A stretch of 64,000 nucleotides of DNA, taken from assembly GCA_947632505.1 (NCBI GenBank), contig CANRPN010000001.1, forward strand, positions 3,870 to 67,869, given 5' to 3'. Origin of the DNA: an uncultured Clostridia bacterium. Lineage in GTDB: Bacteria > Bacillota > Clostridia > Christensenellales > Borkfalkiaceae. Within the stretch, counting starts at the first letter, position 1. The number at the start of each line of letters is the position of its first letter. The notes beneath the pieces were generated by a model that saw only the letters and a program-made list of their open reading frames with translations, was not told where the DNA came from and made no database searches. Shown piece after piece: positions 1,595 through 64,000 of this stretch. Position numbers and translations under genes: made by a program.

Positions 1595-1601
1595 ACGCCG
1601 T

Positions 1602-2814: not shown

Positions 2815-2950
2815 ATGTTTCAAAAGAAACGCCCGCGCAACTTGTTGCGCGGGCGGAAAACTCCTCGAAAAATCCTGTCTTTCGTTCAGGTATTACCCTG
2901 TCCGATTCGAATGGTATGATCTCAGCTTTTTACGGCACCCACGACGGATA
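2815..2950 (-). promoter_or_regulatory. TPP (THI-box) riboswitch with a terminator expression platform, controlling thiT
   Basis: The minus strand reads GGGUGCCGUAAAAAGCUGAGAUCAUACCAUUCGAAUCGGACAGGGUAAUACCUGAACGAAAGA, which carries the CUGAGA, ACC..UCGAAUC and GGGUAAUACC core elements. It is followed by an 11-bp GC hairpin (2830-2855) and a U-rich tract. Confidence 0.8.
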
Positions 2951-2968
2951 TTGAATTTTAATATCTGC

Positions 2969-2974
2969 ATTATA
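2969..2974 (-). promoter_or_regulatory. Probable -10 box (TGaTATAAT, extended) of the thiT riboswitch promoter
   Basis: The minus strand reads tttact-17nt-tataat with a TG motif, about 15-20 nt upstream of the aptamer. Confidence 0.45.
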
Positions 2975-2997
2975 TCACGAAATTTTGCAAAAGTAAA

Positions 2998-3026
2998 TTG
3001 CTTTTTGGGAGAAAATGCGATATAAT
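2998..3026 (+). promoter_or_regulatory. Sigma-A-type promoter (TTGCTT-17-TATAAT) placed for a leaderless yfbR-like mRNA
   Basis: -35 at 2998-3003 and -10 at 3021-3026. The ATG at 3034 lies 7 nt after the -10 box and has no SD. Confidence 0.5.
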
Positions 3027-3033
3027 GTGGACT

Positions 3034-3615
3034 ATGGATAAATTTTACGCTTATATGGATAGAATGAAGTTCATCAAACGCTGGCAGCTCATGCGCTCGG
3101 TGCGCGAGGAGAACATCATGGAGCACTCCCACTCCGTGGCGATCTTGACGCACGCCCTCTGCGTCATCGAAAACAAAGTTTTCGGCGGTAGCGTAGACGT
3201 AAACAAGGCGGTCTTTTACGCCCTCTATCACGAGGTGAGCGAGGTAATGACGGGGGATCTGCCCACTCCCGTGAAATACTTCAACAACAGCATCCACGGC
3301 GAATATGAGAAGCTCGAAACGCTTGCTGTGCAGAAGATCGCGGGGACCCTGCCCGAGGAGATGAGAGAGGAGATCTATCCCTATCTCGAAGCGGATAAAA
3401 CTTCGCGGGAATACCGTCTTACAAAGGCGGCGGACAGGCTCTCGGCCTACATCAAGTGCCTCGAAGAGCTGCGCTCGGGGAACAACGAGTTCGTGCGGGC
3501 CAAGAAGGAGATCGAGGAGTCGCTCGTTGATCTGCACATTCCCGCTGTGGACTATTTCTTCGAGCGCTTCATTCCCGCGTTCGATTTAACGCTCGACGAA
3601 TTGGAAGGATTGTAA
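3034..3615 (+). CDS. HD-domain 5'-deoxynucleotidase (YfbR-like)
   Basis: MDRMKFIKRWQLMR...ENIMEHSHSVAILTHAL...YHEVSEVMTGDLPTP matches the YfbR family pattern. The track ORF starts at TTG 2998, but ATG 3034 is preferred. Confidence 0.85.
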   Translation: MDKFYAYMDRMKFIKRWQLMRSVREENIMEHSHSVAILTHALCVIENKVFGGSVDVNKAVFYALYHEVSEVMTGDLPTPVKYFNNSIHGEYEKLETLAVQKIAGTLPEEMREEIYPYLEADKTSREYRLTKAADRLSAYIKCLEELRSGNNEFVRAKKEIEESLVDLHIPAVDYFFERFIPAFDLTLDELEGL

Positions 3616-3638
3616 AATTTCGATTTGGCAATGAAAAA

Positions 3639-3672
3639 CCGCCCGCCCGCGCTCATATGCGCGGGCGGGCGG
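3639..3672 (-). terminator. Intrinsic terminator downstream of rqcH
   Basis: Perfect 14-bp GC stem (3639-3652 / 3659-3672). On the minus strand it is followed by a U5 tract. Confidence 0.6.
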
Positions 3673-3676
3673 ACGT

Positions 3677-26868: not shown

Positions 26869-26913
26869 CCCTCCCCCGCGCGGAACGCGCGGGGGAGGGG
26901 TAGGGGAGGGGGT
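26869..26913 (+). repeat. REP-like GC hairpin (CCCTCCCCCGCGCG-gaa-CGCGCGGGGGAGGG) with a G-tract tail (GGGGGAGGGGTAGGGGAGGGGG)
   Basis: 14-bp stem at 26869-26899. The four-run G-tract at 26891-26912 fits a G-quadruplex pattern. Related copies lie at 487-606 and 54240-54275. Confidence 0.85.
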
Positions 26914-46985: not shown

Positions 46986-47708
46986 ATGGAAGCGGTTTTA
47001 CGGGTAGAAAATCTCTGTAAACGCTACCGTAAGCGGGAAAAGTATGCCGTCGAGGGCGTCTCCTTTACCTGCGGAGCGGGGGAGATCGTCGGCCTTGTGG
47101 GCCACAACGGCGCAGGTAAATCCACCACGATCAAGTGTCTCGAAGGAATGCTCCCCTACGACGGGGGCCGTGTGGAGATCTGCGGCTTCGATCTGAAAAA
47201 AAAGCCGCTCTCCGCCAAGGCGAATTTCGGATTTGTCACCGACGATCACGCCGCCTTCGTCCGCATGACCGGCAGAGGGTATCTGGCATTCATGGCGGAC
47301 GTGTATGGCGTTCCCACGCGGGAGAGAAAGCAAAGATACGAGGAGCTCGAAACAGTGCTCCGCCTCGGGGACGCCGTCGACCGTCTCATCTCTTCCTATT
47401 CTCACGGCATGCGGCAGAAGATCTGTATGATGGGGTCTTTAATGCACCGTCCCGGGCTTTGGATCCTTGATGAGCCCATGACCGGTCTCGACCCCCTCAC
47501 GATGCGCTCGGTAAAGGAATTTATGCGCAATTATGCGGCGGAAGGGCATGCGATCCTGTTCTCCTCGCACGATCTTCCCGCCGTCGCCGAGCTGTGCGAC
47601 CGCGCGGTCCTGCTCAAACAGGGGAAACAGGTGGACACGTTGTCTCTGAAATCTTCGGGGACCGAGGGAAAAGAAGCGTTGGAGGAACGGTATTTCGATG
47701 AAACTTAG
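46986..47708 (+). CDS. ABC transporter ATP-binding protein (ABC-2 exporter type)
   Basis: Walker A GHNGAGKST, signature YSHGMRQK, Walker B LWILDEP. Starts 1 nt after the upstream stop. Confidence 0.9.
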   Translation: MEAVLRVENLCKRYRKREKYAVEGVSFTCGAGEIVGLVGHNGAGKSTTIKCLEGMLPYDGGRVEICGFDLKKKPLSAKANFGFVTDDHAAFVRMTGRGYLAFMADVYGVPTRERKQRYEELETVLRLGDAVDRLISSYSHGMRQKICMMGSLMHRPGLWILDEPMTGLDPLTMRSVKEFMRNYAAEGHAILFSSHDLPAVAELCDRAVLLKQGKQVDTLSLKSSGTEGKEALEERYFDET

Positions 47709-49308
47709 GTTATTTTTGGTTCTCTTCCGAAAGGAAGTCGTGGAACGCTTCCGCGGAATGGGCGTCGCACTGTGCGTTCAGTTCCTCTTGTATGGGGGGC
47801 TTGGCGTGGCGTTCATTTGGTTTTACATGAAATTTTCGGCCGTCTATCTCGGGATCGGCGGGGACGCTGCGGCGCGCTTTTTCGAGCTGTTGTCCCTCTC
47901 TCTTGCCGTACTGCTCGCCCTTACGACGGTCGGCGCCGCCGTATCCATTGTCCGTTCCGTCCGCCTTGCCGAGGACATGCGCCTCTTTGCGGCTTTGCCC
48001 GTTTCTCCGCGCATTTTGCTTGCTGCAAAACTTGCCGATATTGTCCTTTGGCAGCTGCTTCTCGCCGCCGCGGCGGTATCCGTTTTTGCCTTTGTGCCGA
48101 ACGGCGCCGAAATACCGTGGTATTTTTTTGTGCTCGTCATCCTTTCGCTGCCTGCGCTTTCTCTGGCGCTCGGTGTGATCCTTGCCTTTCCCGTTCATGC
48201 GCTGGTGCGCTTTCTGCGCGGAAAATTTTTGTTCTCTTTCTTGATGGGGACCGCGCTCTTCGGAGCGCTGCTGTATCTCTATTCGTTCGCGCTCGGAGGC
48301 GTGAAAGAACTTCTGCTCGGCGGCGATCTCAAATACTTTTTCGGGGAAAAGGTTTTGCGCGGCATCGGTCTTGCGGCGCGGTATTCCTATCCGTCAAGCA
48401 TGCTTGCGCAGCTCCTTATCGGGGGAAGAGCGGGGTTGTATGCCCCGCTTACGGCGGGGATCGTTCTGATCGCTCCGTTCGTTTGCTTTTTTCTCTCGAA
48501 AAATTTTCTCAAAGACGCGCTCGCACAGAAGCCCGCGGGACGGTCGCCCCGTCTTACCGCCCGCACGACTCGAAAACCTAAGTTTTTTGCCTTGCTCACC
48601 AAGGAATTTGTGCAGATATTCCGCACGCCCGCCTATGCATTTTCCTATTTTTCGGTCGCGGTCGTGATGCCGCTCATGATCTATTTCTGCATGTCGGTCG
48701 GAGACTCCCTGCTCGAACAGCTGCTCGGGGTGAGCTGTTCGTTCGAACTCTCCGTCTTTCTCACGTTGCTTTACAGCGCGCTGACAAACGTGTTCTGCAC
48801 GACCAATGTGAGCCGCGAGGGACGGATGTTTTCTGTTTTGAAGGCGTTTCCCGTCAGCGCGGGGCAGGTTTTTTCGGCAAAGATTTTTTTGAGCATGCTC
48901 ACCGTATCCCTCTCCCTGTTTGCTTCGTCCGTTGCGCAATGGGCGGCGAACTTTCTCACCTTTCCCGCCGCGCTTGCCGTATTTGCGATCGGGCTTGTCT
49001 TTTCCTTTGCGCAGGTTTGTTTTGCAACGCGGTATGACTTTACGCACCCCCGTTTCTCCGCGGAGACGGACGGAGAGGTGGGAGAGGGGGACGGCGTTTC
49101 TTTGCTTTGGCTCGCACTCTCTTTGCTGCTCGGCGGGGGACTTCTCGTGGGAAAACTGTTCGCGACTTTGCGGTTTGGAAGTTTTCCCGCCCTGTACACC
49201 GTCCTCTTTGCGGGCGGAGTCTCCCTCCTGGCGGCGGTCTTTTCCGTATTCCGCCTCTTTTTCGGTTTGCAAAAGAGATATGAACGTTTTTCGGGAGGGA
49301 CCGTATGA
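47698..49308 (+). CDS. Polytopic membrane protein, probable permease partner of the ABC ATPase (536 aa, >10 TM)
   Basis: Overlaps the ATPase gene by 11 nt and is hydrophobic throughout. No specific family recognised. Confidence 0.7.
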   Translation: MKLRLFLVLFRKEVVERFRGMGVALCVQFLLYGGLGVAFIWFYMKFSAVYLGIGGDAAARFFELLSLSLAVLLALTTVGAAVSIVRSVRLAEDMRLFAALPVSPRILLAAKLADIVLWQLLLAAAAVSVFAFVPNGAEIPWYFFVLVILSLPALSLALGVILAFPVHALVRFLRGKFLFSFLMGTALFGALLYLYSFALGGVKELLLGGDLKYFFGEKVLRGIGLAARYSYPSSMLAQLLIGGRAGLYAPLTAGIVLIAPFVCFFLSKNFLKDALAQKPAGRSPRLTARTTRKPKFFALLTKEFVQIFRTPAYAFSYFSVAVVMPLMIYFCMSVGDSLLEQLLGVSCSFELSVFLTLLYSALTNVFCTTNVSREGRMFSVLKAFPVSAGQVFSAKIFLSMLTVSLSLFASSVAQWAANFLTFPAALAVFAIGLVFSFAQVCFATRYDFTHPRFSAETDGEVGEGDGVSLLWLALSLLLGGGLLVGKLFATLRFGSFPALYTVLFAGGVSLLAAVFSVFRLFFGLQKRYERFSGGTV

Positions 49309-52301
49309 GAAAAAATATTTTTGCGCTCTCCCTGATTTTGCCCCTCTTGTTTCTCTTCTCCGTGTTCTCCACCGCCAAGACGGTTGCCCTCGGCGTGCAG
49401 ATCTCGGCAAACGGCATTGAGCTTGTCGACGTTCCGCAAAACGGTTACCGCATCGACATTTCGGAGAAGCAAGAGGAAATCATTCTAAGAGCGAAAGTGC
49501 TTCCCGAAGCGGCCACCGAGCGCGGCTATTTTTTCCGTGTTGCGGGCGACGCCGTCTCGGTGGACGAAAAAGGGCGTCTGCACGCGGAGAAAACGGGTGA
49601 GGCGGTCGTTTCCGCGGTCTCCCGGGATGGGGGATTCGAGGATAGCGTCAAGGTCACGGTTTATGCCTCCGCTCCGTACGACCTCCTTTTTTCGCTCCGC
49701 GATCCCGTCTCGGGGGAGGAGTTGCTTTCCCCGACCGCGGAGGGCTATGCCGCCGCGCTTCCCACAGGAATGTATGCGTTCGAGGCGAGAACGGTCCCGG
49801 GCGGCGCCCCGGCGATTTCATCCTCCGGCTTCGCTCTTGCAGATAACGTTGCAGGCACCCTCTTTCTGCCGTTCGGCGGCCGTCATACCCTCGAACTTTC
49901 GGCCGACGGCCGATGGAAAGGAGAGAAAAGGCGATTGCATAAAACGGTCGTACTGACTGCCGAAACATATGTCACGCAGTCGGGGTTTGTCGTCAACGGA
50001 GGAAACCCCGTGCTTGTTGTGGAGAGAGCGAGCAGAAGCGCCTCTTTCTTCATCGAAGGAGAGGAGCCGAGGATAGAAGCGTGTCCCGAAATCACGGCAA
50101 GCAGTGTGGAAGCGTTGGGCGGGAACCGCTACCGTGCGCAAATTTCTTTTGCGTCGGCGGAGGATTTTTCCTTTTTTGTGACAGACGAAAGGGGGGAAAA
50201 GAGAGAGGAAGTGCAGCTCACTTTTGCCGACTTCGACTTCACGGTTCGCGCCGGACTTCCCGTGCAAACGGATCGGCCGAGCATCCTCGTCGGCGAGCCC
50301 GTCTCCTTTTATGCTGTGCCCGCCGTTCCGGCAGAGGGGGTCTCCTATGAGTGGGAGACGGAGGGGAATGCCGCCGCGGAACCGCGGGACGGGGAATGCG
50401 TCGTTACCGCCTCGGAGGCGGGCGAGCTCGCGCTGCATGTCAGAGCGGTCCGCGGCGGAAGCGTTCTGGCCGAAAAAACCCTTCCCGTCGATGCCGTGCG
50501 CAGGGTACGGACGGTACAGTTTGCCGGTAAAACGGATTTGGGGCTTGCGCGCTGTCTTGTGATCGGGGGCAAGCGTTTTTCGGGGAACGAACTGACCAAA
50601 AACGCTTATTCTCTCCATCCCGTGCTTTCGGACGGGAAAAATGAACTCTCGGGGACGGAGGATATCGCCTTTTCGGTGTCGGAAGAAGAGGCCGCGGCGC
50701 TGACTTTCGAGGAGGGAACTCCCTGCCTGTTGCCCAAGGGCAAGGGAAAAGTCAAGGTAGTGGCGGAATGGCGCGGCAACGGGTCCTACGGAGAAGACGT
50801 GCGCTCCTCGCTCGAAGTTTATGTTGTGAGCGACGGGGTAGAAGTGCGCACGAGTGAAGAGCTCTTCCGTGCGGCGGACGAGGGGCGGGAGGTCGTTCTT
50901 GCGGCCGACATTCTGCTCGGGACCGACGGGGAAGGGGCTCCGCTCTCGGCCGAAGCGCGGGCAAAACTCCTCCGCGAAATGCCCTCGACCTACAACACCG
51001 AATATTACAAAAATGCCTCCGGAGAACGGCCCGAAAATGCCAAGGTGAAATATGTGTTCGAATTTAAGAACGACGTTTACGGCAACGGATATGAACTGAA
51101 CGCAGGTCTCTTTACCGCGGAGCGGGACGGTGCGGCGCCCCGTTTTTTCCGCGGTCCTCTTTGCTTTGTCCGCTTCGGACAGCTTGCCTCCGTCGCCGCG
51201 CAGGACAACATTTCCTTCCTCGTCCGCACGGACGGCGTTACCCTCCACAATCTCGGTCTCCTCGGCTGCGGAGATGAACTGTTGCAGACGGAAAACGGCT
51301 ACGATCTTTCGAAACTGAACACGGTGGGCACGGTGCTCGAAGTGAACGCCGATTGCAGCCTTCTCAACTGCCGCCTGCGCAACGGCAGAACGGTCGCACG
51401 GGTTTACGGCGGAAACCGGGATGGAAATCGCTATTTCGCGCCCCGCCCCGCAGAGGAGGAACGCATCCATGTGCGCATGGAAGGCTGCCGTCTCTCGCAG
51501 GGAAGGGAATTTCTTCTGAAACTCGGCGCGAACGCCGCTGTCCGCTCCACAGCCGGAAACGCAGAGCCCGACCTATTTGGATATTCCGTGGAAAAAGAGC
51601 ACGGGGACGACAACTTTTATCGTGACTGCGTGTTTACCGACGTCGTGCTCAAAGACAGCGTACTCGAAACGAGCGGTCTCTTTTGTATCGGCGTGGAGAG
51701 CAATTTTTCGGGGCCGCTCCTGGCCGAAGGCGGGAGCGGGGGAGCGTTCGACGGTTGGGCGGGGACGGGCGGCACCTCCTATGCCTCCGTCCTGCGCCTT
51801 GCGGGCGATGTCCGTCTTTACGATTGGAAGGATATTTCCCTGATCGACAGTTCCACGCTCATCGAAACGGAGCTGGCAGAACTCAAACTTGACATCGCCG
51901 CCATGCTCCTGTTCGTCGCATCGCGGGAGCCCGAAAAGTATGGCGACTTGCTCGAAGCAGATGGGGATGCCCGCTTTGTGCACGGCGGCATTGCCTTTTA
52001 CGGCGGCGGGAAAAATTATTCGGTCCTTCAAGATGGGCTCGTGTCCTCCGGGCTGCGGGAGTATCGCGTCGATCTTTCGGTGCTCGGGGAGGCGGAGGGC
52101 AGCACCGGATACCAGGGGCAGATCCTGCCTTCCGCGGCGGGCACGCAGGCGTTTCGGTTCTTTCTCTATGACGCAAAGGGAAGCCGCAACCGCGCTGCCC
52201 AGCAGAAAGAAGCGCAGGAGGGGAAAAAGTATGAGTGTATTTCGCCGCTGTCGCCTTTTTCGTCGAAAAAAATCGAGGAAAATTCAAAATTTTTTGCATG
52301 A
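49305..52301 (+). CDS. Large secreted or anchored protein (998 aa) with a Big_2-like Ig domain and a right-handed beta-helix-like region
   Basis: N-terminal signal/anchor. LRAKVLPEAATERGYFFRVAGDAVSVDEKGRLHAEKTGEAVVSAV resembles Big_2. ATGA overlap with the permease gene. Confidence 0.8.
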   Translation: MRKNIFALSLILPLLFLFSVFSTAKTVALGVQISANGIELVDVPQNGYRIDISEKQEEIILRAKVLPEAATERGYFFRVAGDAVSVDEKGRLHAEKTGEAVVSAVSRDGGFEDSVKVTVYASAPYDLLFSLRDPVSGEELLSPTAEGYAAALPTGMYAFEARTVPGGAPAISSSGFALADNVAGTLFLPFGGRHTLELSADGRWKGEKRRLHKTVVLTAETYVTQSGFVVNGGNPVLVVERASRSASFFIEGEEPRIEACPEITASSVEALGGNRYRAQISFASAEDFSFFVTDERGEKREEVQLTFADFDFTVRAGLPVQTDRPSILVGEPVSFYAVPAVPAEGVSYEWETEGNAAAEPRDGECVVTASEAGELALHVRAVRGGSVLAEKTLPVDAVRRVRTVQFAGKTDLGLARCLVIGGKRFSGNELTKNAYSLHPVLSDGKNELSGTEDIAFSVSEEEAAALTFEEGTPCLLPKGKGKVKVVAEWRGNGSYGEDVRSSLEVYVVSDGVEVRTSEELFRAADEGREVVLAADILLGTDGEGAPLSAEARAKLLREMPSTYNTEYYKNASGERPENAKVKYVFEFKNDVYGNGYELNAGLFTAERDGAAPRFFRGPLCFVRFGQLASVAAQDNISFLVRTDGVTLHNLGLLGCGDELLQTENGYDLSKLNTVGTVLEVNADCSLLNCRLRNGRTVARVYGGNRDGNRYFAPRPAEEERIHVRMEGCRLSQGREFLLKLGANAAVRSTAGNAEPDLFGYSVEKEHGDDNFYRDCVFTDVVLKDSVLETSGLFCIGVESNFSGPLLAEGGSGGAFDGWAGTGGTSYASVLRLAGDVRLYDWKDISLIDSSTLIETELAELKLDIAAMLLFVASREPEKYGDLLEADGDARFVHGGIAFYGGGKNYSVLQDGLVSSGLREYRVDLSVLGEAEGSTGYQGQILPSAAGTQAFRFFLYDAKGSRNRAAQQKEAQEGKKYECISPLSPFSSKKIEENSKFFA

Positions 52302-53269: not shown

Positions 53270-53709
53270 CGCGCGCGGAGCAGGCCAAACAAAATTTTCT
53301 CGGCGGATACACCTGCGCGCAGGCGGTGCTGCTTGCGTTTGCGGACGCGCTCGCGGACGATGCGGAGACGCTGAAAAAGATCTCCCGTCCTTTCGGCGGG
53401 GGAATGGGGCGGCTTCGGCTCACCTGCGGAGGGGTCTCGGGCGGGGTAATGGCGCTCGGGCTGTTTTTTCCCGATCTTTCCAAGAGCGAGCTTTACGCCC
53501 TTGTGCAGGAGTATGCGAGGCGATATGCGGCGCGGTTCGGGAGCTGTATCTGCGGCGAGTTGTTGTCGGGCGCGGGCGTTCAGGCGGACTGTTCTCCGCA
53601 GGCGGAGGCGCGCACGCCCGAATACTACCGAAAGAGGCCCTGTCCCGAGTTGGTTTACGGCGCGGCGGAGATCCTCGAAACGCTCTTGAAAGAGCGCGGA
53701 AAACTTTAA
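53266..53709 (+). CDS. C_GCAxxG_C_C family (putative redox-active) protein
   Basis: GGYTCAQAV, CGGVSGGVMALG, CGELL and CPELV Cys motifs. ATGA overlap with the MBL gene. Confidence 0.8.
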   Translation: MTRAEQAKQNFLGGYTCAQAVLLAFADALADDAETLKKISRPFGGGMGRLRLTCGGVSGGVMALGLFFPDLSKSELYALVQEYARRYAARFGSCICGELLSGAGVQADCSPQAEARTPEYYRKRPCPELVYGAAEILETLLKERGKL

Positions 53710-53733
53710 CGCGGAACGAACTTTGGGGTTTCG

Positions 53734-53777
53734 GCGCGGCGCGCGCTGTTTTCGGCAGCGCGCGCCGCGCTTTTTTC
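53734..53777 (+). terminator. Intrinsic terminator
   Basis: 15-bp GC stem (53734-53748 / 53756-53770) followed by T6. Confidence 0.8.
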
Positions 53778-53817
53778 GGGTAAAATAAAAGCGGTTTTCA
53801 TTGCGCAAACTGTATTT

Positions 53818-54216
53818 ATGAAAAAAATATTGTGTATTTTTGCGCTATGTTGCACTTTGATTTTCAGCGGCTGCAAGGTGGAAGAGATGAGCACCCTGCG
53901 CGATATATCCCGTCCGTATGCGGGGGAATACAAGTGCAGGAAGCTGACGCTCGGCGGGCAAGATCTGCTCGGCCGCTTTGACTATCTCAAACTGAACTTA
54001 AATTATTTCGGAAAATTTCGGCTGACCTATGCCGAGGTGTCGGCGGGGGAAGGGGAGTATAGCGGCACGTACGAGGCGGGGGAAGAAGAGATTGCGTTCT
54101 GCGCTTCGGCGGGCGGGGAAAAGAAGCGTTACGTCTTTCCCTATGAGAGCGGCACGGTGCGCGTGGAGTTGCTTTTGGGTGAAAAGCTGCTTTACGCCGA
54201 ATTTTCCGCGCTCTGA
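53818..54216 (+). CDS. Small lipoprotein of unknown function
   Basis: MKKILCIFALCCTLIFSGC lipobox; 132 aa. Confidence 0.65.
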   Translation: MKKILCIFALCCTLIFSGCKVEEMSTLRDISRPYAGEYKCRKLTLGGQDLLGRFDYLKLNLNYFGKFRLTYAEVSAGEGEYSGTYEAGEEEIAFCASAGGEKKRYVFPYESGTVRVELLLGEKLLYAEFSAL

Positions 54217-54239
54217 CTGAGTTGTATTATTGCCTGTAT

Positions 54240-54281
54240 CGCCCCTCCCCCGCGCTTATGCGCGGGGGAGGGGCGTTTTTT
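54240..54281 (+). terminator. Intrinsic terminator built from the CCTCCCCCGCGC hairpin family
   Basis: Perfect 16-bp stem cgcccctcccccgcgc-ttat-gcgcgggggaggggcg followed by T6. Confidence 0.85.
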
Positions 54282-54326
54282 GCATAAGGAAAGGGACGGC
54301 GGCATAAAATGCGGATTAAAATGGCG

Positions 54327-54403
54327 CAATACGTATTGACAAAAAAATTTTTATAAAAAATTTGCAGGAAAGGGAAAAAACGGGGAAAACGCAATACGTA
54401 TTG
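54327..54403. promoter_or_regulatory. Two copies of the 12-bp perfect palindrome CAATACGTATTG (candidate dimeric-regulator sites)
   Basis: Copies at 54327-54338 and 54392-54403, centres 65 bp apart, in an AT-rich region about 100-170 bp upstream of the giant-gene promoter. Confidence 0.5.
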
Positions 54404-54498
54404 CATTTTAAGGGGCTGTGAAGGGCAAAAAAGCCGAAAATCGGGCACAAAAGGAAATTTTTGCTCAAAAAATTTTCAATAAGAACGGTTTCAAACGC

Positions 54499-54526
54499 TT
54501 GACAAATAAAATAAATAGAGTATAAT
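54499..54526 (+). promoter_or_regulatory. Consensus-hexamer promoter (TTGACA-16-TATAAT) for the giant surface-protein gene, followed by a ~195-nt structured leader
   Basis: -35 at 54499-54504 and -10 at 54521-54526. The leader contains a 13-bp GC hairpin at 54611-54641. Confidence 0.55.
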
Positions 54527-54728
54527 GGTGCCAAAAATAGTGAAAATGCGCGTATTATGTCGAGAACGCGCGCGCATAGGGGAAAGCTCGCCCCCTTTGC
54601 TACGCCAAGGGCGCCGCCGCCTCGGAATGAGGCGGCGGCGCAACGGAGCGGCCGCAAGAAGCGTACTCTTAAAAAACTTATTAAGAGCAGCGAGCGTCAG
54701 AAATTAGAATTTTTTTTGGAGGAAGACC

Positions 54729-57700
54729 ATGAAAAATACCGAGCGAAAGGGGTGGAAAACTTTTTTTGCAGAAATGGGCAGAGGAAGGAAAACAGCGGTC
54801 ATAGGGCTGTCGGCAATTCTTGTGGCGGCGCTTGCAACGGGCGTTGCACTGCCTTTTGTAAACAGAGCAGCCAACATGCGGGAGCTTACAGCGCAAGCGG
54901 CAAGTTACAGCACCGTGCTCAATTCAAACATCGGTCTGCACCCGAAGCTGAAATTGAATGCCGATTCCGGTGTTTATGTTGAAATCAAGAATCAAGATAT
55001 TGCAACGGCAGCCGAGGAAATTGTCTATGAACAAGCCAATGCCTATGTTCTTCCCGAGCAATATGCCGGGAATAACTATCAGTTTACGAATGTACCGCAG
55101 ACTGGTACTTTTAAGGAACTCGGCTATTCGGATGACTCTGTGGAAGAAATTTTTAACCGAATTGTAGAAAAATACAAGCTGGTCGTCGGGCAGCCCGTGG
55201 TCTTCTATGCAGACGATGAATTTGACATTGCCGAAACTTGGGCAGACGCGGTGGTCTTTTCTCTCATTACAGGCGTGGGCCGAGAAACGGGTATCTCGGG
55301 AGGGAAAACGTTTTACGGCAATTTCTTTGCGGATCCTTCTCAAAATAGTGCCGCTGGGCAATATGTTACCGTGCGGCTCGAATATGATTGGACGGCGCAG
55401 GACATTACAGGAGACCTTATGGGCACCGGGAATATTACTTCCACGACCTTCCACTACGCAAGCGTTGCTTCCGGGCGTACATTGGAAGGTTTCCAAGGTG
55501 TCACAGAAGCAAATCACAAGAGTTATGCCGTCGCCTACGACCGCCCCATGTGCGCCATCGCGGCGAGCGGAACCGACTATATGCAGGCGTTCTCCTTCGG
55601 ACGGATCAATGTGCCTGCCGGCTGCTATATCGTGCTCGATCTGAATGGGCACACCGTAGACCGCGGGCTCTCCGTGGAGACGGGCGAGTTCGGCTATACT
55701 TCTGAGTCGTTCAACGATTTGAATGATAACCAGCCGAGCGACAGCGGCATTCACGACAGCTTGAAGATCAAGGATCAGACGTACTCCAACGCGGCGCTGA
55801 ATTATGGCTCGGTGTTCAATGTGGAGAGCAATGCCCGCCTTGAAATTTATGACAGCACAGCATACGAAAACGCCTCCTACAACCGCATTACGGGCGTAAC
55901 CGACGGTAAGACCGCGCTTGAAAAAAATGTCCAAAGTCTTGCGACCAACCATGCGGGCACCATCAAGGGTACTTGGACGGAGAATATCGACGCTGGAAAG
56001 TATGCAGTCTCATCCTCCGGGCAGTATGACACGTTCCGAGGCGGAGCCGTCCATCAGGCGCAGCGCTCGGAGGTCACCCTTCACAGCGGCACCATCCGCG
56101 GCAACGGCGGCTATACCACCGGCGGCGCAATCATGATCTCGGGCGTTGCCGTGTTCACCATGTTCGATGGCTATTTGCTCAACAATTACGCGGGACATCC
56201 CGCAAGCGGCAATGGCGGTGCGGGCGGCGCGGTTTATGCGGGCAACGGCTCTCTCGCTACGTTCACCATGCAAGACGGCGTCATCGCCTACAACACAGGG
56301 AAGACCAATCAAACCTATCTTGGTGATCAGGCGTTCGGCGGTGGCGGCGTGCAGATCGGTTGGGGAGACTATTTCATTCTGCACGGCGGCGAAATTTCGG
56401 GCAACATCGCCCCCCGCGGCGGCGGCATCAATATCGTCTATTCGGCAAGATGTATCATCGACGGCGTCACTTTGACCGACAACATTGCGGCGAGCAAATA
56501 TACGGGACACAATGAGCCTAAGGGCGGCGGTATCTTTATGCCCGCTCGTCTTGCTGCCGGACACGGAAGAGCGACAGGCGCGAGCACTGCCGAGGGTTAC
56601 ATGCAGAGCGGAAATTTAGTGGGGCGTGTAAAAATTGCAGGCGCTTTACAGGTTTACGAAAATAAAGCATTGCATAGCGGTGCTTCTATTGAAAATAATA
56701 TTCATTTGGAAAATTCCAAGCAGCAGCCGAGCAATTCGTTGAATAGTGATACTACGCACTGGCCAAGTTGGAATCCAACCAATAGTGGGGGGGTTTATGC
56801 TTATCTTGAAATCGTAGGCTCGTTGGTCTCCAACGGGATCACTGCGCATATCGGCCTTACTCTGGACGGCACGTCCGACTGGGCGGGCAGAGGTCGTTTC
56901 ACCGAAGGATATTCGTTGCATAGCCATAATCTTTCGCCCGATAAATTCTTCTTCGTAGACGGAACTACGACCGACGTCTTGCAAACGCTTACAAGCAACG
57001 AGGCGCAAATCGGCGCTGTGCAAACCACTCCCACTCAGCTCACTTGGGTGGTGAGCGGCTTTGGCACTGCGCTCGTGCACGCGGTGTCCTCGGTAGATAG
57101 TGAAACTTCGGGCGGTTATCCTTATATCCCGGTTAAAGGACAAGAGCAGAAAGAGGGCGATCCCACCGGCGATTATTACTATCAATATGCCGCAAGCGAG
57201 ACGGGCGGCACCGGCGTAGACGGAAAGGAACACAAGGCAATCAAAGACGATATTTCCGGTAAATATATCATCGACCAAAACAACGACGGTATCATCAACG
57301 ATCTCGATAGGCTGCTCTACGGCTATGTGGCGACGGATATTCCCATTACAATATGTTGCTATGATAACGGCACTATAACCTACGGCACGGATGGCGTGCT
57401 CGGTACAGGAAAATCAAAGGTCACGGGGCATAACTTTGACGTCAAGTATGAGTTGCTCTATGCTTCGCAGTCCGGGATCCAGTATTCCTATTCGGGGCTC
57501 TCTTTCGAATACACAATGCTCAAAGTGAACTCCGTTTCGGCATATAGCGGGAAGTACATAACGACCCCTGCCGCCAGCGTCAGTCCCTTAATTTCTTGGA
57601 AAATCGGTGAGGGCGGTAAGGTCACCTCTACGGGAACTTTCGTTACGAGCTTTAAGCTCCTCGAAGGCACCTCTCACGAAACCGATTGGTCGGAAAACAA

Positions 57701-60700
57701 GACTGAGACAAATACGATCCTCGGCGCAACGGAAGATACCATTTCCTATGCGGGCGACTACGGTTTTGTTATGGGTGGGAACACGATGTACGCTAACGCC
57801 ACCTTTAATATCACTATCAACCGTATCGGGATCGACGCGTCAAGCCGGAAATATTTCAACGGAACGAGCGTGACTGAACTCGGTTGGATCGGTGAGGTGA
57901 ATTACGGCACGGAAGACAGTCCCGACAAAGTGGCAAACGAGGAATATTTCCATTATGCGGGCAAAGATTTCGAGCCCAAGCTCGAAACGGAATACGCAGA
58001 AATGGACGCTGCTACAAAGAACGCCTTTTCGGGTTATGTGCTTGTATTCAAATATGCAAACGTAGAATATTTTGGTGATACATATTTCCAATTTGACGCA
58101 AGAGGCGGTACTTACAATACCACGCACAGAGAACCCGGTCAAAGCACCGATCAGGGCGTTCCCGTGAGCGCCGTTCGTAACGCCGGTTATTACAGCATTC
58201 AGTTCACACCCGGTACGGATGCAGGCGACAATGCGGCAGGAGTAAACTTTGCTTCCAACAACTTTGCATTTTCTTCCAGATTGCGCGTGTATGTCCGTGA
58301 GGCGGACGTGCAGGTCACGCTAACCGAGAATGCAAAAGAACGCACCGATAAAACAGGTTATTCGAACCTCGAATACACATCTACCCCTTATACCAACGAG
58401 GCAATCATCGGCTTTAACAACAATAGCCGTTCGGAGATCATCCCTCACAGCGACGGCACGGCAAATATCTTCTTCTTCACCTATGCCGACTTTGAATCTG
58501 CCGTTAAAAATAGTTCTTCCAGTGAAGAACTTATGAAGCATAGCACGCAGGTTATCCATGCGGGACGTTATGTCGTGCTCGTGGAGCAGACAAAAGTCGA
58601 AGGGTACGACCAATATAATTATACCTTTACGCAGGATTCAAACGGCGCTTTGACGGGAGCAAGTAAGGAATTTGACGGCCATTCCGTCGACGACTATATA
58701 AAAACACTTGATGGCGTTGATTTTGCCTTTGAGTTTTATGTCAATCCCATTGATCTCGGTGAAAATCCGTTCGACGAAGATGGAAACCAAACGAACACAA
58801 ACTTTAAGGGCCAGATGAATACGAGCTCGCTTTCCCGTATATACACAGGGGCTCCCGTGGCAGATACTTTCGAAATCAGCTATACTAACGCCAGCGGAGT
58901 TCCTTTGGTCCCCAATAAATATGACCCGGAAGCAAAAACGGGCGACTATGTGGTGTACTTTACCAATAAGGTCGACGATACGACTAAGGGCGACAGCGGT
59001 CTCACCTACTATGCCGTAAGCGCGAAACATCCTGCCCCTACCGATGCGGGCACTTATTTCGTTGCAATTTATTTCGGCGATTATAAGCCAGACGACGGCA
59101 CTCCCACCCAATATGGCACAGCGAAAAAATTTACCTCGCAAGACGAGTTGCAAGACTTTATCGGCGCATGGTACGGCAAATTTACCATTTCGCCCGTTCA
59201 GGTTACCGTGACCGCGACGATCGAAATGACCTATAACGGCGAGCTGAGCGCCGAGGGCGAAGTAAGAACACAGGACACAGAGTATCAAGACAAAAGCTAT
59301 AGTACGCACACCTACTTCGAGCCGTTGGTCCTTCTTCGTACCAACAACACTGTGTCCGCCAAGAAGGAAATATTCGGCATTTACACCACCTCCTCCACCA
59401 CGACAAATTTCTCTTACAACGATGAGAAGTTCATAGATAAAGGGGTGAAGGTGGGCATCAGCGTGTATTATTACCGCCTCGACAATGCGAACATCGGAAA
59501 TCATACCCTGAGTACCATTTCGGCATTCACAAAGCCCACCTTGGCCGCAACGGCAAACCCCGAGAGCGGTTATTCGACGAGCTGGAAGGTAACGGCTGCG
59601 GACGGCGGCAATGTCTCTGCGGATACGCAAGGGGTAATTTGGCACATTTCATACACCGGTGGTGGCGCAACAGGCCAACCTGCGGGTCTCAACAGCGACT
59701 TTAACGGGAACTTTGTCGTCACTAATAGCTCTACCTTGAACGTAAACATTCAGGCGAAGAGCATTACACCTTATGAAGGTACAAAGGCAGATACTGCTGA
59801 TGAGAACAACTATTATTATACCGATACCGAGACGACCAAGAAGACCCCTTGGCAGGACTTCGGATATACAGCAAACGGCAAGAACAGTCTTTCAACTGGG
59901 TTAACAGTAGGCGGCAACAATAGCACAGCCTATAAGTTGCTCCGCAAGGAGGGCGAAGTCCGCATTTCGATCAAAGAGACTAACTACTATATTATAAAGA
60001 ATGAAGGCGGCAGTTATAAGCTCTTGAAGGAGGACGGCTCGGATGTTACGACGGTCGATTTGGACCTTATCTACAACGGCCAAGAGCAGACCTTCGACAA
60101 CGACATCAATCTGACCTATGAGACGATTGCCTGCGTTTACCGCAACAGACATGACACGGGAAGCACGATCAATGCATGGGACTATACTTTCGGCAAAACG
60201 CTAACCTTGAACGACCCCGCAACAAAACCCACAACCCCAGACTATTCTGTCGCTTACACGAATAACGTCAACGCGGGCAAAGCCGCCACACTTACGATCA
60301 CAGGCACGGGCAACTACACGGGCTCCATTACAATTACATTCGAAATCGACCCTGCAAAGGTCTATCTCGACGAAAAATCAAGCAAGGAATATAATTATAC
60401 CGGCAGCGATCAGCGTTCTGCAATGCAGGAAGACTTGTTCGCATCGCTCGTACATAACTATGACGAAAAGAACACTGCAGTGCCCACCGCGAGCGAATGC
60501 ACGGTCACGTTCGATTATGTTGTAGGGGAAAACACCAAAACAAATACCGAGGCGATCAACGCAGGCGAATACACGGCAAATGTTACCTTAACGAGCAATA
60601 ACTTTGTGTTTGTCGAAGGCAAGGACAGCGACAAGTTGGTTGAGACGGACGGAAAGAAGGATACTGCCCAATTTACCATTTCTCCCGCGCAAGTCGAAGT

Positions 60701-63700
60701 ATCCAAGCTGAGCATTACTTCCGTTCAGTACGACGGCAAAGATTACGCCGGCCGTGTTACGCCGACTTTTACGTCCCTTACCTCCGGTACGGAAGCAACG
60801 CCCGTCGGTTACGACCAAGGCAACGGCTACACCTATCTCTTTGAAAAGGGTGGGAGCAAGGCGTCTGAGGTAAAAGACGTCGGGACGTACATTGTTACCG
60901 TAGTGCTTAAACCTCTGACAGTTACCTTTGACAATGGGAAGACGGCAGACGTCTACAACTTCAAATTCTATAATGGCCAAGATAAGGATGCGACGACTGA
61001 AACGAATTTGAACACTCTCGGTGAGCAGATCATCTTTGAGATCACGCCTGCCATTGTTACGGCGTTGGTCACGATTCTCACGGGCCTTTGGTACGATCCG
61101 TTTGTCGACCGCTTTAAGTTCCGCGTGGAAGTAAATTCGAGCCTCAATAACGGTATCGCGCTCGACAGAGACGAATACTTCGTCATGTTCAACGAAAAAA
61201 GCTCGCCCGATGTACACTATCAGGATGAGCCCGATGATAGCGGAGAAAAGGATTACTACTATCTTGATACCAGCCGTGGCGCGTTCCCGCATATCGGCAA
61301 ACACAAGATCCGCATTGCCTTGAAAGATGACAGCAACTATGCGTTTGTGGATGCGGCGGATACGAAGTCCGAAACGACACGGCAATATGATTATCCTTTC
61401 GCGATCGAAAAGGATAACCGCCATACCGTGGAATATGTGAGCGGCTTCGAAAACGATGAGGATGTAGTGATCACGGGCGGTAATTTCTCCTCCGTTACCA
61501 ACTATTCCTATGGCGACGCGTTGGCGCTCGAAACCGAGTACAGTATGATCGATAAGGACGGTACGCATTACATCCTGATCGGCTGGACGCTGAATGCGCC
61601 GGAGGGGGGCTACTACAAGCTCGGCCTGAACAATCATACGACGATCAGCAACCTCACTTCCGCGTTTTGGGTAAAAGGGGTCAACGGCGCAAACGATGTC
61701 CCGTATTACTACTTCGGCCGTCGCTTCGAATACGATAATACGAATAATCAGCTCACATGGCCGGATAAAGACGATTGGGAGACGTACGGCGACATCTATT
61801 GGGATTTCGATGAGCACCGCGATCAGCTCATGCAGAACGAGCAAGATTGGAGCGCAACGGCCACCTTCTACGCAATTTGGGCGATCGACAAAGACAACAG
61901 CGAAATCCCCGACTGGATCGAAGAGTTTACGTTGAAGTACGACGCAGGCGTAGATCTTGAAAATGATTTTGCATACGAAGGGCAACCACTTCCCGTTGGC
62001 CCGAACCGTGCTCCCAACGGAGTAGCGAATTATAAGTACTACGCAGGGGAAACGGCAGAGCTCGAACAGCGTACCCTTTCGGACGGAACTTTTTATTGGA
62101 TCACCCGCAAAGAAGCTATTCAGGGCGTGGCGTTGGATTCTGTGGAATCAGTTTACAACACCTATGTGCTCTACGGCTGGACGGTGACAAGGCCACAAGG
62201 CGATTATGCGGAAGGTTACTTTATCGACAGCGCTGAAATGCTTGCCAAGCTCTATACCGACCTCAACTATCTTGATAAAAAGTATATGGTGAGGTCGGCA
62301 GACGACATGAACGACGGCGTTATAAACGGCACGATCACTTTGTACGCAATTTGGGCGCAGGACAACAATAAGAACGGCGACCCTGAGCTGAATACTACGT
62401 ACTATACCGTATCTTATAGAGATGATACGCCCGGCTCAACCATGCCCGAAGCAAAAGCAGGCCTTCACGGCACCCGTGTGGCGCAAGACAAAATGCCTGT
62501 TCCCACCACAGGGTTAACGGATGAGAACGGCGACAATGTCTTTAAGATGTTCGACGGCCGCAGGTATGTATTCAAGGGGTGGACGCTTCTTTCTGATAAG
62601 GTAGGTTCCGAGGGCAACTCCTATGTCTGCGAAAAAAAGACCGCTCTTGAAGCCTTTGGAACGCTTTACATCGGACAAACAATTTACCAGATCGACGCCG
62701 AGGACGATAAGAAGTATTCCGAAGACGGTAGCGAGGATGGCACGATCATTCTCCACGCCGTTTGGGCGCTCGATGAAAACGGCAGCGGCACGCCCGACTG
62801 GGACGAATCGCCCTACACCCTCACCTATCAAAACAGTGTGGGAGGAACGGTCACAGTTGATACGAGCTATCGTTATGCGATGCAAAATTTCAGCGGCAAT
62901 TCCGGCAGTACGTGGAATGTGAGATTCTCGTCGTTTGCAAATGGCTCCGTGACCGACCATGTGCTCGGCGGCAAGACCATTCAACTGCCCGGCGGAACTT
63001 CGGGTGCTGCCGGAAATTACCCCGTCAAGCTCACGCGGGACGGAAAAACCTACCTCCTGATCGGTTGGACGTCGGTCGCCGGAACAACCACGCAGGACTA
63101 CTATATTTTCCAATACAGCGAGGATTACAAGAATCCCGCACTCTATTATGGGGCCGATAAGTACTATTCGGTAGGCGGTAACTACACCACGCCGAAAGAA
63201 AACGCGTCTTTGTATGCAGTGTGGGCCGCGGACGAAAACAACAACGGCATTCCCGACTATTTGCAGGACTTCACCGTCGTCTTCAAGCTCGACGAGACCA
63301 CTGCCGCCGCCGCCAACGCCAACGGCAACAGACTTACGGTCAGCCCGCCCTGGGCGGATGTGGAGTATAGCAACCAGCGGATCGGCGCATCCGTTGCGGT
63401 TCGTGCGAACACTTATACCATTACCACTACCCAGGGAGGGAAAGAGACGAAGTATGTCCTCGTCGGCTTTACCAATGCAAAGCCGCAGGGTGGAAATAGC
63501 ATCTACTTTACGAGCACCGACCCCACGTCAGTAGAAAATAAAGCAAAATATAAGACCTTTGTCACGGCGGCGACAGGCTACACCGTCAAGGCCGCCGACG
63601 ACATTACCGAAGGTGAAACCAGCGGTGACTGCACGATTGAATTCTTCGCCGTTTGGGGCATCGATGTAAATGGGGACGGCGATCCCGATTGGAACAATAC

Positions 63701-64000
63701 AACTTATGAAGTTTTCTTCGAGCTCGGCGATGAGAACGAACTCCAAAACGCAAAGGACATAAAGACGCATCTTCCCACAGCGGTTTACGATAAAAAGAAA
63801 CCGGAAACGGGTTGGGCGGACAACGACGTTGTGGAGCAGGTCGCTATCGGCGATACGATCTATTGGGAAAATGCCGCGCAGCTTTGGAGCAGAGATGTAG
63901 AAAACTTCGGTGTGACGGGCGCGGACGGCAAGCATTATATGCTAATCGGCTGGACGACTTCCACTGACCTTACGACCTACCTTTTCAACACCGCGCCGAG
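54729..64000 (+). CDS. Giant cell-surface protein, 5' portion (>3,090 codons, open at the window end): signal-anchor, PMP-like GGA(I/V) beta-helix, MBG-type repeats, then tandem Flg_new-like modules
   Basis: SD GGAGGA at 54718-54723, ATG at 54729, upstream in-frame TAG at 54705-54707. I read every codon of this frame to base 64000 and found no stop. The ORF is absent from the track because it has no stop in the window. Motifs: GGAVHQA/GGAIMIS/GGAVYAG; YNGQEQTF and NAGKAATLTITGTGNYTGSITITFEI; repeated LIGWT...YA(I/V)WA.D.N..G.PDW. Confidence 0.9.
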   Translation, partial: MKNTERKGWKTFFAEMGRGRKTAVIGLSAILVAALATGVALPFVNRAANMRELTAQAASYSTVLNSNIGLHPKLKLNADSGVYVEIKNQDIATAAEEIVYEQANAYVLPEQYAGNNYQFTNVPQTGTFKELGYSDDSVEEIFNRIVEKYKLVVGQPVVFYADDEFDIAETWADAVVFSLITGVGRETGISGGKTFYGNFFADPSQNSAAGQYVTVRLEYDWTAQDITGDLMGTGNITSTTFHYASVASGRTLEGFQGVTEANHKSYAVAYDRPMCAIAASGTDYMQAFSFGRINVPAGCYIVLDLNGHTVDRGLSVETGEFGYTSESFNDLNDNQPSDSGIHDSLKIKDQTYSNAALNYGSVFNVESNARLEIYDSTAYENASYNRITGVTDGKTALEKNVQSLATNHAGTIKGTWTENIDAGKYAVSSSGQYDTFRGGAVHQAQRSEVTLHSGTIRGNGGYTTGGAIMISGVAVFTMFDGYLLNNYAGHPASGNGGAGGAVYAGNGSLATFTMQDGVIAYNTGKTNQTYLGDQAFGGGGVQIGWGDYFILHGGEISGNIAPRGGGINIVYSARCIIDGVTLTDNIAASKYTGHNEPKGGGIFMPARLAAGHGRATGASTAEGYMQSGNLVGRVKIAGALQVYENKALHSGASIENNIHLENSKQQPSNSLNSDTTHWPSWNPTNSGGVYAYLEIVGSLVSNGITAHIGLTLDGTSDWAGRGRFTEGYSLHSHNLSPDKFFFVDGTTTDVLQTLTSNEAQIGAVQTTPTQLTWVVSGFGTALVHAVSSVDSETSGGYPYIPVKGQEQKEGDPTGDYYYQYAASETGGTGVDGKEHKAIKDDISGKYIIDQNNDGIINDLDRLLYGYVATDIPITICCYDNGTITYGTDGVLGTGKSKVTGHNFDVKYELLYASQSGIQYSYSGLSFEYTMLKVNSVSAYSGKYITTPAASVSPLISWKIGEGGKVTSTGTFVTSFKLLEGTSHETDWSENKTETNTILGATEDTISYAGDYGFVMGGNTMYANATFNITINRIGIDASSRKYFNGTSVTELGWIGEVNYGTEDSPDKVANEEYFHYAGKDFEPKLETEYAEMDAATKNAFSGYVLVFKYANVEYFGDTYFQFDARGGTYNTTHREPGQSTDQGVPVSAVRNAGYYSIQFTPGTDAGDNAAGVNFASNNFAFSSRLRVYVREADVQVTLTENAKERTDKTGYSNLEYTSTPYTNEAIIGFNNNSRSEIIPHSDGTANIFFFTYADFESAVKNSSSSEELMKHSTQVIHAGRYVVLVEQTKVEGYDQYNYTFTQDSNGALTGASKEFDGHSVDDYIKTLDGVDFAFEFYVNPIDLGENPFDEDGNQTNTNFKGQMNTSSLSRIYTGAPVADTFEISYTNASGVPLVPNKYDPEAKTGDYVVYFTNKVDDTTKGDSGLTYYAVSAKHPAPTDAGTYFVAIYFGDYKPDDGTPTQYGTAKKFTSQDELQDFIGAWYGKFTISPVQVTVTATIEMTYNGELSAEGEVRTQDTEYQDKSYSTHTYFEPLVLLRTNNTVSAKKEIFGIYTTSSTTTNFSYNDEKFIDKGVKVGISVYYYRLDNANIGNHTLSTISAFTKPTLAATANPESGYSTSWKVTAADGGNVSADTQGVIWHISYTGGGATGQPAGLNSDFNGNFVVTNSSTLNVNIQAKSITPYEGTKADTADENNYYYTDTETTKKTPWQDFGYTANGKNSLSTGLTVGGNNSTAYKLLRKEGEVRISIKETNYYIIKNEGGSYKLLKEDGSDVTTVDLDLIYNGQEQTFDNDINLTYETIACVYRNRHDTGSTINAWDYTFGKTLTLNDPATKPTTPDYSVAYTNNVNAGKAATLTITGTGNYTGSITITFEIDPAKVYLDEKSSKEYNYTGSDQRSAMQEDLFASLVHNYDEKNTAVPTASECTVTFDYVVGENTKTNTEAINAGEYTANVTLTSNNFVFVEGKDSDKLVETDGKKDTAQFTISPAQVEVSKLSITSVQYDGKDYAGRVTPTFTSLTSGTEATPVGYDQGNGYTYLFEKGGSKASEVKDVGTYIVTVVLKPLTVTFDNGKTADVYNFKFYNGQDKDATTETNLNTLGEQIIFEITPAIVTALVTILTGLWYDPFVDRFKFRVEVNSSLNNGIALDRDEYFVMFNEKSSPDVHYQDEPDDSGEKDYYYLDTSRGAFPHIGKHKIRIALKDDSNYAFVDAADTKSETTRQYDYPFAIEKDNRHTVEYVSGFENDEDVVITGGNFSSVTNYSYGDALALETEYSMIDKDGTHYILIGWTLNAPEGGYYKLGLNNHTTISNLTSAFWVKGVNGANDVPYYYFGRRFEYDNTNNQLTWPDKDDWETYGDIYWDFDEHRDQLMQNEQDWSATATFYAIWAIDKDNSEIPDWIEEFTLKYDAGVDLENDFAYEGQPLPVGPNRAPNGVANYKYYAGETAELEQRTLSDGTFYWITRKEAIQGVALDSVESVYNTYVLYGWTVTRPQGDYAEGYFIDSAEMLAKLYTDLNYLDKKYMVRSADDMNDGVINGTITLYAIWAQDNNKNGDPELNTTYYTVSYRDDTPGSTMPEAKAGLHGTRVAQDKMPVPTTGLTDENGDNVFKMFDGRRYVFKGWTLLSDKVGSEGNSYVCEKKTALEAFGTLYIGQTIYQIDAEDDKKYSEDGSEDGTIILHAVWALDENGSGTPDWDESPYTLTYQNSVGGTVTVDTSYRYAMQNFSGNSGSTWNVRFSSFANGSVTDHVLGGKTIQLPGGTSGAAGNYPVKLTRDGKTYLLIGWTSVAGTTTQDYYIFQYSEDYKNPALYYGADKYYSVGGNYTTPKENASLYAVWAADENNNGIPDYLQDFTVVFKLDETTAAAANANGNRLTVSPPWADVEYSNQRIGASVAVRANTYTITTTQGGKETKYVLVGFTNAKPQGGNSIYFTSTDPTSVENKAKYKTFVTAATGYTVKAADDITEGETSGDCTIEFFAVWGIDVNGDGDPDWNNTTYEVFFELGDENELQNAKDIKTHLPTAVYDKKKPETGWADNDVVEQVAIGDTIYWENAAQLWSRDVENFGVTGADGKHYMLIGWTTSTDLTTYLFNTAP

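Follow-up and report, generated by a model that had tools for sequence, protein, structure and literature searches.

What does the last 9.3 kilobases of a 64,000-nucleotide stretch of DNA from an uncultured Clostridia bacterium encode, when the accompanying track of open reading frames (ORFs) lists no frame that spans it? The stretch (contig CANRPN010000001.1 of assembly GCA_947632505.1, positions 3,870 to 67,869 of the forward strand) is referred to herein as the window. A previous interpretation made from the letters alone, the sequence-only reading, had proposed that a giant frame starts at position 54729 and leaves the window still open, encoding an adhesin or a cell-envelope fibre. The follow-up analysis confirmed that the window ends inside a real gene, the product of which appears to be an exported surface protein of more than 3,090 residues from a gut Clostridia-type bacterium. 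Judged by its sequence, the protein belongs to an unnamed, uncurated and very rare family with a conserved head, and its locus is a slot in which the encoded surface protein varies between strains.

A giant gene open at the window edge

The frame beginning at ATG 54729 on the plus strand, the strand of all features of the giant gene described below, was translated through 3,090 codons with zero stops to base 64000, the edge of the window. This agrees with the frame as it was originally described, and re-translation of 54729-64000 yielded no stop to contradict it. An in-frame TAG (54705-54707) is present upstream, and a Shine-Dalgarno sequence, GGAGGA (54718-54723), ends 5 nucleotides before the start codon. 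From the base composition of the region, stops are expected at 4.7% of codons, which puts the chance of 3,090 consecutive stop-free codons at about 1e-64, while each of the remaining five frames contains 20-179 stops over the same region.

The giant ORF is absent from the track because the track, by its own description, omits ORFs running off either end, and its omission is thus the edge artefact that had been suspected. Frame arithmetic also agreed with the earlier statement that no listed plus-strand ORF is in the giant-gene frame, the count being zero for those between 54557 and 63534. Furthermore, the minus-strand ORFs at 54924-55952, 56010-56564, 56646-57278, 58638-59645 and 60588-61985 can be regarded as shadows of the giant coding frame, as had been suggested, since all of them sit in the codon-aligned antisense frame, the one with 20 stops.

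Independent sequence was available for the beginning of the gene. Two metagenome contigs from ENA include its start, one with 99.9% identity over window positions 53440-55503 (L004) and the other with 100% identity over 53541-54806 (L006). The assembly is confirmed by independent sequence up to 55503, and past this point it is supported only by the continuous frame and by the colinearity of homologues to about residue 2200. The GC content at the three codon positions (0.50/0.42/0.60) is uniform and coding-like over the whole length of the gene. Overall GC is 50.9%, compared with 54.8% for the window, and GC at the third codon position (GC3) is 0.60, compared with 0.67-0.73 in three immediate neighbours and one further gene of the window. 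The low GC3 is consistent with acquisition by recombination, a suggestion weakened by the equal GC3 of another surface-protein gene of the window, the Flg_new gene at 9167-12016. Amino-acid composition, expression level and foreign origin are all possible causes of the low GC and GC3.

As predicted, the C-terminal end of the protein lies outside the window, the frame being still open at 64000. Attempts to recover the 3' end included an exact look-up of the upstream neighbour in the contig index, which gave only contigs of at most 5.3 kilobases, a search of GTDB representative genomes, which gave only a 24%-identity match in an Oscillospiraceae metagenome-assembled genome (MAG), and two JGI metagenome scans, which gave no match.

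A very rare family with a conserved head

The whole protein, ten 400-residue pieces and eight short pieces were scanned with Pfam and NCBIfam. No family reached threshold, whether the protein was scanned whole or in overlapping pieces, the latter producing sub-threshold noise only; as a positive control, the genuine Flg_new proteins of the same window scored 1e-20 and 6e-8 in the Pfam scan. Sequence searches of the PDB with the whole protein, a profile of the head and a profile of the C-terminal modules likewise gave no match. In a word-seeded search of 5.8 billion clusters only seven relatives were found (P0001-P0007; 3,638-5,393 residues, 27-38% identity). An exhaustive phmmer search with residues 1-1200 against 1.84 billion representatives returned 43 proteins at E<=1e-3 and seven at E<=1e-30, all seven being 3,638-6,619 residues long, with E values for head relatives of 4e-65 to 4e-55. 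Altogether, about ten proteins among the 1.84 billion representatives are colinear with the first ~1,250 residues, and all of them are giants of 3.6-6.6 thousand residues.

The conserved family head comprises residues 58-1255 (54900-58493), to which P0002-P0007 and P0012-P0014 align colinearly with 27-39% identity. By BLASTP, P0002-P0007 are colinear with residues ~13-1255 of the window protein and also share repeat units around residues 1822-2206, the only part matched by P0001; the colinear homologues cover residues 13-1255, 1276-1689 and 1822-2206. An alignment of residues 190-830 displayed a mean column identity of 51% and 119 invariant columns. Invariant motifs of the head include AFSxGRINVPxGxYIVLDLNGHxxDRxL and AYENA; YGSVFxxxSxARLExxDxxAYENAS, HSGTIxxN and FDGYxLxNxA are other motifs of the aligned region, and GVxFAxNNFAFSS lies further along the head, with GVxFAxNNFAF strongly conserved. 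The known family members come from MAGs such as GCA_947589555.1, GCA_947625225.1 and GCA_947632195.1. The locus of one relative also encodes Spo0A, which points to a Firmicutes/Clostridia host. The distant P0001 cluster carries the NCBI name of a Coprococcus fibronectin type III domain-containing protein. No paralogues of the head or of the modules were found elsewhere in the window.

A probable right-handed beta-helix within the head

Within the head, residues ~430-760 (56016-57008) probably form a right-handed beta-helix, as suggested indirectly by the domains of weakly matching proteins, sequence periodicity and structure prediction. The glycine-rich, beta-helix-like region with GGA(I/V) repeats that had been pointed out earlier is borne out by six GG[AG][ILV] rungs at residues 438-602, three of the form GGA[IV] and three of the form GGG[IV], spaced 26-39 residues apart, a count matched by none of 2,000 shuffles. 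The weak matches of the exhaustive phmmer search all align at residues ~430-600, and when ten such weak-match proteins were submitted to Pfam, Beta_helix (PF13229) was assigned in three of them and Chlam_PMP repeats appeared below threshold in two. No direct match to Beta_helix PF13229 or to a pectin-lyase-like profile was obtained with Pfam for the protein itself, whole or in pieces. Residues 190-830 were modelled with AlphaFold2 from a seven-sequence family alignment, with a mean predicted local distance difference test score (pLDDT) of 51.9 and a predicted template modelling score of 0.62; the core at residues ~439-609 reached a pLDDT of 70-81 and consists of short periodic strands. When this model was compared with the PDB using Foldseek, all 50 neighbours listed were right-handed beta-helix proteins, none of them significant (best E=0.1). 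They include AlgE4 epimerase, PL6 alginate lyases, a capsule lyase, pectate lyases and tailspike depolymerases, and also the adhesin-type Ag43, pertactin and IgA1 protease passenger.

The sequence-only reading had listed Chlam_PMP among the Pfam families to be checked. Membership in the chlamydial polymorphic membrane protein (PMP) family was rejected, since neither the whole protein nor its pieces matched PF02415 at E<=10 and the FxxN tetrapeptide does not occur once in residues 251-800. The window protein nevertheless resembles chlamydial PMPs and autotransporter passengers such as pertactin and Ag43 in its GGA(I/V)-type rungs, its probable right-handed beta-helix and its surface-adhesin logic. 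It differs from them in lacking PF02415 and FxxN and in its Gram-positive-type context; moreover, those proteins have a C-terminal beta-barrel, whereas the relatives of the window protein end in a single transmembrane helix.

Export and anchoring

Residues 1-57 (54729-54899) have the layout of an export signal, with a basic n-region, a hydrophobic stretch at residues 21-48 (Kyte-Doolittle mean 2.38) and an AQA-A site, probably cleaved between AQA and A, directly before NxNIGxHP, the first conserved motif. A small-x-small site precedes this motif in the window protein and in all but one of the six aligned relatives, the exception being P0003, which has DIG. At the opposite end, eight of the nine giant head relatives examined terminate in a ~23-residue hydrophobic transmembrane helix followed by a basic RRKK-type tail, and none of the nine has LPXTG in its last 80 residues. 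Because the relatives possess this C-terminal helix and basic tail together with an AxA-type site before the first motif, the Sec signal is probably cleaved and the anchor probably resides at the C-terminal end, giving a likely type-I membrane topology for the family. The signal-anchor of the sequence-only reading is thus retained as an N-terminal hydrophobic export segment, and its role as an anchor is doubtful. The LPXTG, SLH or CWB anchors suggested there are not what the relatives use, their place being taken by the transmembrane helix with its basic tail.

A proposed stalk of MBG-like units and tandem modules

The head is followed by a middle region (residues 1256-2231; 58494-61421) in which units bounded by FxIxPAxV...Y(D/N)G can be recognized from residue 1485. 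The junction strands FxIxPAxV...Y(D/N)G occur at residues 1485, 1871, 1982 and 2103, with AGxY and N(F/Y)xF motifs after them, and residues 1822-2206 match repeats in P0001, P0002, P0012 and P0014. By inspection against the MBG_2 domain of P0002, the motif layout of MBG domains is found here (an IxPxxLxV first strand, Y-x-G, AGxY and a closing FxIxP), which is a resemblance and not proof of homology. No match to MBG_2 (PF18676) or MBG_3 (PF18887) was obtained at the gathering threshold, the best profile score in the protein being 13.2 bits for MBG_3 (E=0.096, residues 1873-1994), and the stretch of P0005 aligned to residues 1838-1989 scored 24.9 bits against an MBG cut-off of 25. Of the MBG-type repeats claimed earlier, the motif layout can therefore be retained as a resemblance, and the profile scores are all sub-threshold. 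An internal transmembrane helix at residues 2099-2121 was considered and rejected, since this hydrophobic segment lines up exactly with the other FxIxPAxV...YDG junction strands and is itself one of them.

Residues 2232-3090 are made up of six modules of 137-167 residues arranged in tandem: M1 (residues 2232-2398; 61422-61922), M2 (2399-2556; 61923-62396), M3 (2557-2693; 62397-62807), M4 (2694-2846; 62808-63266), M5 (2847-2990; 63267-63698) and M6 (from residue 2991; 63699-64000), the last being truncated where the window ends. The anchors of a module run in the order of a YTVxF first strand, Y-V-L-I-G-W-T, T-I-x-L-Y-A-V-W-A and a linker D-x-N-x-N-G-x-P-D-W. Self-BLASTP of the protein revealed no repeats at E<=1e-3, and the modules emerged only with windowed phmmer, by which they are true repeats with pairwise E values down to 1e-9. 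A hidden Markov model built from the six modules matched only those modules within the window. No relatives of the modules were found among the 5.8 billion clusters, by single sequence or by profile, in PDB sequences or in the relatives of the family. The linkers look like calcium-binding loops, and may act as such, to judge from the motif and a sub-threshold FG-GAP match. AlphaFold2 modelling of M5, meant to show whether the modules have the beta-grasp-like fold of the InlB B-repeat, gave a pLDDT of 52.6, too low to judge the fold, and the Foldseek matches of the model were meaningless.

The modules had been described as Flg_new-like, and they do share with Flg_new (PF09479; the InlB B-repeat) the order of anchors, namely a YTVTF strand, Y-x-F/L-x-G-W and a final LYA-x-W. 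The assignment was not confirmed and counts as a resemblance: Flg_new is ~65 residues long, about half the length of the modules, the protein has no PF09479 or PF18998 match, although genuine Flg_new controls score well with Pfam, and hhalign of the modules against genuine Flg_new domains gave a probability of 9% with only the last strand aligned. Genuine Flg_new domains do occur elsewhere in the window, in two large proteins with lipoprotein-like N-termini (43005-46985 and 9167-12016). In the Flg_new protein of 1,326 residues, many MBG-like FxVxKxxL...YGE junctions can be seen by eye, and Pfam reports none at E<=1e-3.

A strain-variable slot behind a conserved promoter

The upstream 132-residue gene closes with a strong intrinsic terminator (54240-54275) consisting of a 16-bp GC-rich stem followed by a T-run, and the giant gene therefore forms a separate transcription unit. 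A sigma-70-type promoter, TTGACA-16 nt-TATAAT (54499-54526), matches the consensus at 12 of 12 positions. It is followed by a 5' leader of ~195 nucleotides carrying a 13-bp GC-rich hairpin (54611-54641) with no T-run after it. An Rfam scan of the leader gave chance-level matches only, and a known riboswitch or leader element was rejected on that basis; a stabiliser of the mRNA and a regulatory site are candidate roles for the hairpin. As a side match in blastn, the terminator hairpin was found to have a near-identical palindromic copy ~27 kb away (26869-26900), and the copies may represent a dispersed terminator or an element resembling repetitive extragenic palindromes.

Two Logan contigs, L001 and L002, from samples other than that of the window, carry a different allele at this locus. 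They are 95.8-98.6% identical to the window over the upstream genes and ~99% identical from the promoter through most of the leader, to about position 54687. Both promoter hexamers are identical in the strains with the other allele, the only differences being two spacer positions, and the stem of the leader hairpin is invariant between alleles, with a loop of GGAAT in one and ATTAA in the other. Past ~54687 weak similarity extends over the Shine-Dalgarno sequence, the ATG and the signal-peptide codons, and none is left after ~54870, which places the 5' boundary zone of the variable cassette at 54688-54870. The stretches in question are window positions 54480-54900, L001 positions 1070-5274 and L002 positions 3322-3709. 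In L001 the alternative allele encodes an open product of 1,319 residues, a BspA-type leucine-rich repeat (LRR) protein (LRR_5, E=7.7e-31), which gave no BLASTP match to the giant protein of the window. The gene for the BspA-type LRR protein (PF13306) thus keeps the promoter and leader of the window gene, and its signal peptide is weakly similar, but the mature protein is unrelated. The locus is a slot whose surface protein varies from strain to strain, and since promoter and leader are kept while the coding sequence is unrelated, the same expression context drives unrelated giants in close strains.

Gene neighbourhoods

An ATP-binding cassette (ABC) ATPase (45% identity) and a polytopic membrane protein of ~537 residues (24%, E=1e-15) are encoded near the giant genes both in the window (46986-49308) and at the P0006 locus (L008, 17516-19970). 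This pair was rejected as a conserved partner of the family, being absent from the P0007 and P0002 loci (L009 and L010). Directly 3' of the P0006 and P0002 giants lies a protein of ~563-585 residues with an N-terminal membrane helix (L008, 15246-17003; L010, 15180-16871; 43% identity, E=2e-67). In the window, the ORFs at 49305-52301 (998 residues) and 47698-49308 (536 residues) gave no Pfam match at E<=1e-3, and the 998-residue product shows no relationship to the partner protein found at the P0006 locus.

A probable adhesin-like fibre and alternative explanations

These observations are reasonably well accounted for by a Sec-exported, membrane-tethered, adhesin-like fibre, in which a beta-helix head binds, a stalk is formed by MBG-like units and lineage-specific modules, and the cassette is replaced between strains; this explanation is considered probable. 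The window would then hold the 5' 9.3 kb of an independently transcribed gene for a giant cell-surface protein, which would be exported through Sec by its N-terminal signal and tethered to the membrane at its C-terminus by a transmembrane helix and basic tail of the kind found in its relatives. Such a topology would place the conserved ~1,200-residue N-terminal head, including the right-handed beta-helix, at the distal, working end. Below the head, MBG-like beta units and then at least six lineage-specific modules of ~150 residues would make up the stalk. The function may be adhesion to glycans or to other cell surfaces, and slot variation would diversify the cell surface at the population level. 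The adhesin or cell-envelope fibre of the sequence-only reading thus appears plausible in view of the export signal, the C-terminal anchor of the relatives and the probable beta-helix of the head. Several observations weigh against this explanation. The AxA site lies 12-14 residues past the hydrophobic core, a long distance for cleavage by signal peptidase I; the C-terminus of the window protein, and hence its anchor, lies beyond the window; and its C-terminal modules are absent from the relatives, so that its end may differ from theirs. In addition, no fold match reaches significance (best E=0.1), the mean pLDDT of the models is only ~52, and no Pfam, NCBIfam or PDB sequence match directly backs any of the domain assignments. 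A further point against it is that many of the fold neighbours are polysaccharide lyases or epimerases, the top ones including AlgE4, PL6 alginate lyases, the capsule lyase, tailspike depolymerases and pectate lyases.

This last point leads to another interpretation, in which the head is a surface-displayed, polysaccharide-active beta-helix enzyme (lyase, epimerase or hydrolase) and the giant mainly a tethered glycan-degrading machine. It gains from the head being the conserved part of the family, with invariant charged and polar residues in motifs such as LDLNGHxxDRxL and AYENA. However, none of the fold matches is significant, the adhesin beta-helices of Ag43, pertactin and the IgA1 protease passenger appear in the same list, no CAZy-type Pfam match was obtained and no catalytic constellation was identified, and an enzymatic head is regarded as unlikely. 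Less likely still is that the N-terminal signal stays uncleaved as a signal-anchor from which the rest of the protein extends outward, perhaps tethered at both ends: the long hydrophobic segment at residues 21-48 and the position of the putative AxA, at a distance beyond this segment that is atypical for signal peptidase I, would fit such an arrangement, but in the relatives a further transmembrane helix, with a basic tail, lies at the C-terminus, and the small-x-small site recurs before the first motif in nearly all of the aligned sequences. Finally, the ORF, or its C-terminal 860 residues, might be an assembly chimera or a decaying pseudogene, given that independent contigs confirm the sequence only to 55503, that the C-terminal modules have no homologue and that the GC3 of 0.60 is below that of neighbouring genes. 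This is very improbable, since 9.27 kb are free of stops (a chance of ~1e-18 for the 860 codons of the module region alone), GC at the codon positions is uniform along the gene, the modules make up a coherent family repeated in frame and the relatives are colinear to about residue 2200.

In addition to the adhesin-like fibre, a broader proposal can be put forward tentatively, as a possibility more than a likelihood: the last ~860 residues, with their calcium-loop-like linkers, may represent a new family of ~150-residue repeat domains, and the locus a dedicated expression slot consisting of a perfect promoter that is fixed, a conserved and structured leader and a signal peptide. Different strains of a species would insert unrelated giants into this slot, one of the beta-helix-head family here and a BspA-type LRR protein elsewhere, so that the cell surface would switch at the population level by replacement of cassettes.

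Relation to known systems and significance

The closest counterparts of the window protein are the giants of its own unnamed family from gut Clostridia MAGs (P0002-P0007 and P0012-P0014), which are alike in the head, the N-terminal export signal, the MBG-like units after the head and the giant size. They differ in that the last ~860 residues of the window protein, the six modules, have no counterpart in them, and their gene neighbourhoods differ. The Ebh protein of Staphylococcus aureus begins with a signal and continues as a very long, repetitive extracellular part that ends in a C-terminal membrane-spanning segment with a positive tail in place of LPXTG, and its repeats are helical (FIVAR/GA type). 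The topology suggested by the relatives of the window protein is like that of such Ebh-type giants, although the window protein is predicted to be beta-rich instead of helical; no sequence similarity to Ebh was found, no dedicated test having been made.

Very large Clostridia proteins with Listeria-Bacteroides repeats and similar binding domains have already been described from mammalian-gut metagenomes (bioRxiv 10.1101/2023.11.21.568195). The kind of protein, giants of gut Clostridia with adhesion-type repeats, is therefore already known, and what is new here is the uncurated, very rare family, the apparently orphan repeat module and the strain-variable locus. Current understanding is not overturned, and the value of the finding lies in annotation and in a lead for structural and strain-variation work. 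For annotation practice, it illustrates that ORF tracks dropping edge-truncated frames can hide the largest gene of a window. The family, with ~10 members among 1.84 billion representatives and a conserved head of 1,200 residues, is in no curated library. The giant surface proteins of uncultured gut Clostridia mostly lack annotation, and attachment to host mucus, dietary particles or other microbes probably depends on them. Here a single conserved promoter and leader precedes either of two unrelated giant surface proteins, an alternation relevant to differences between strains in niche and immunity.

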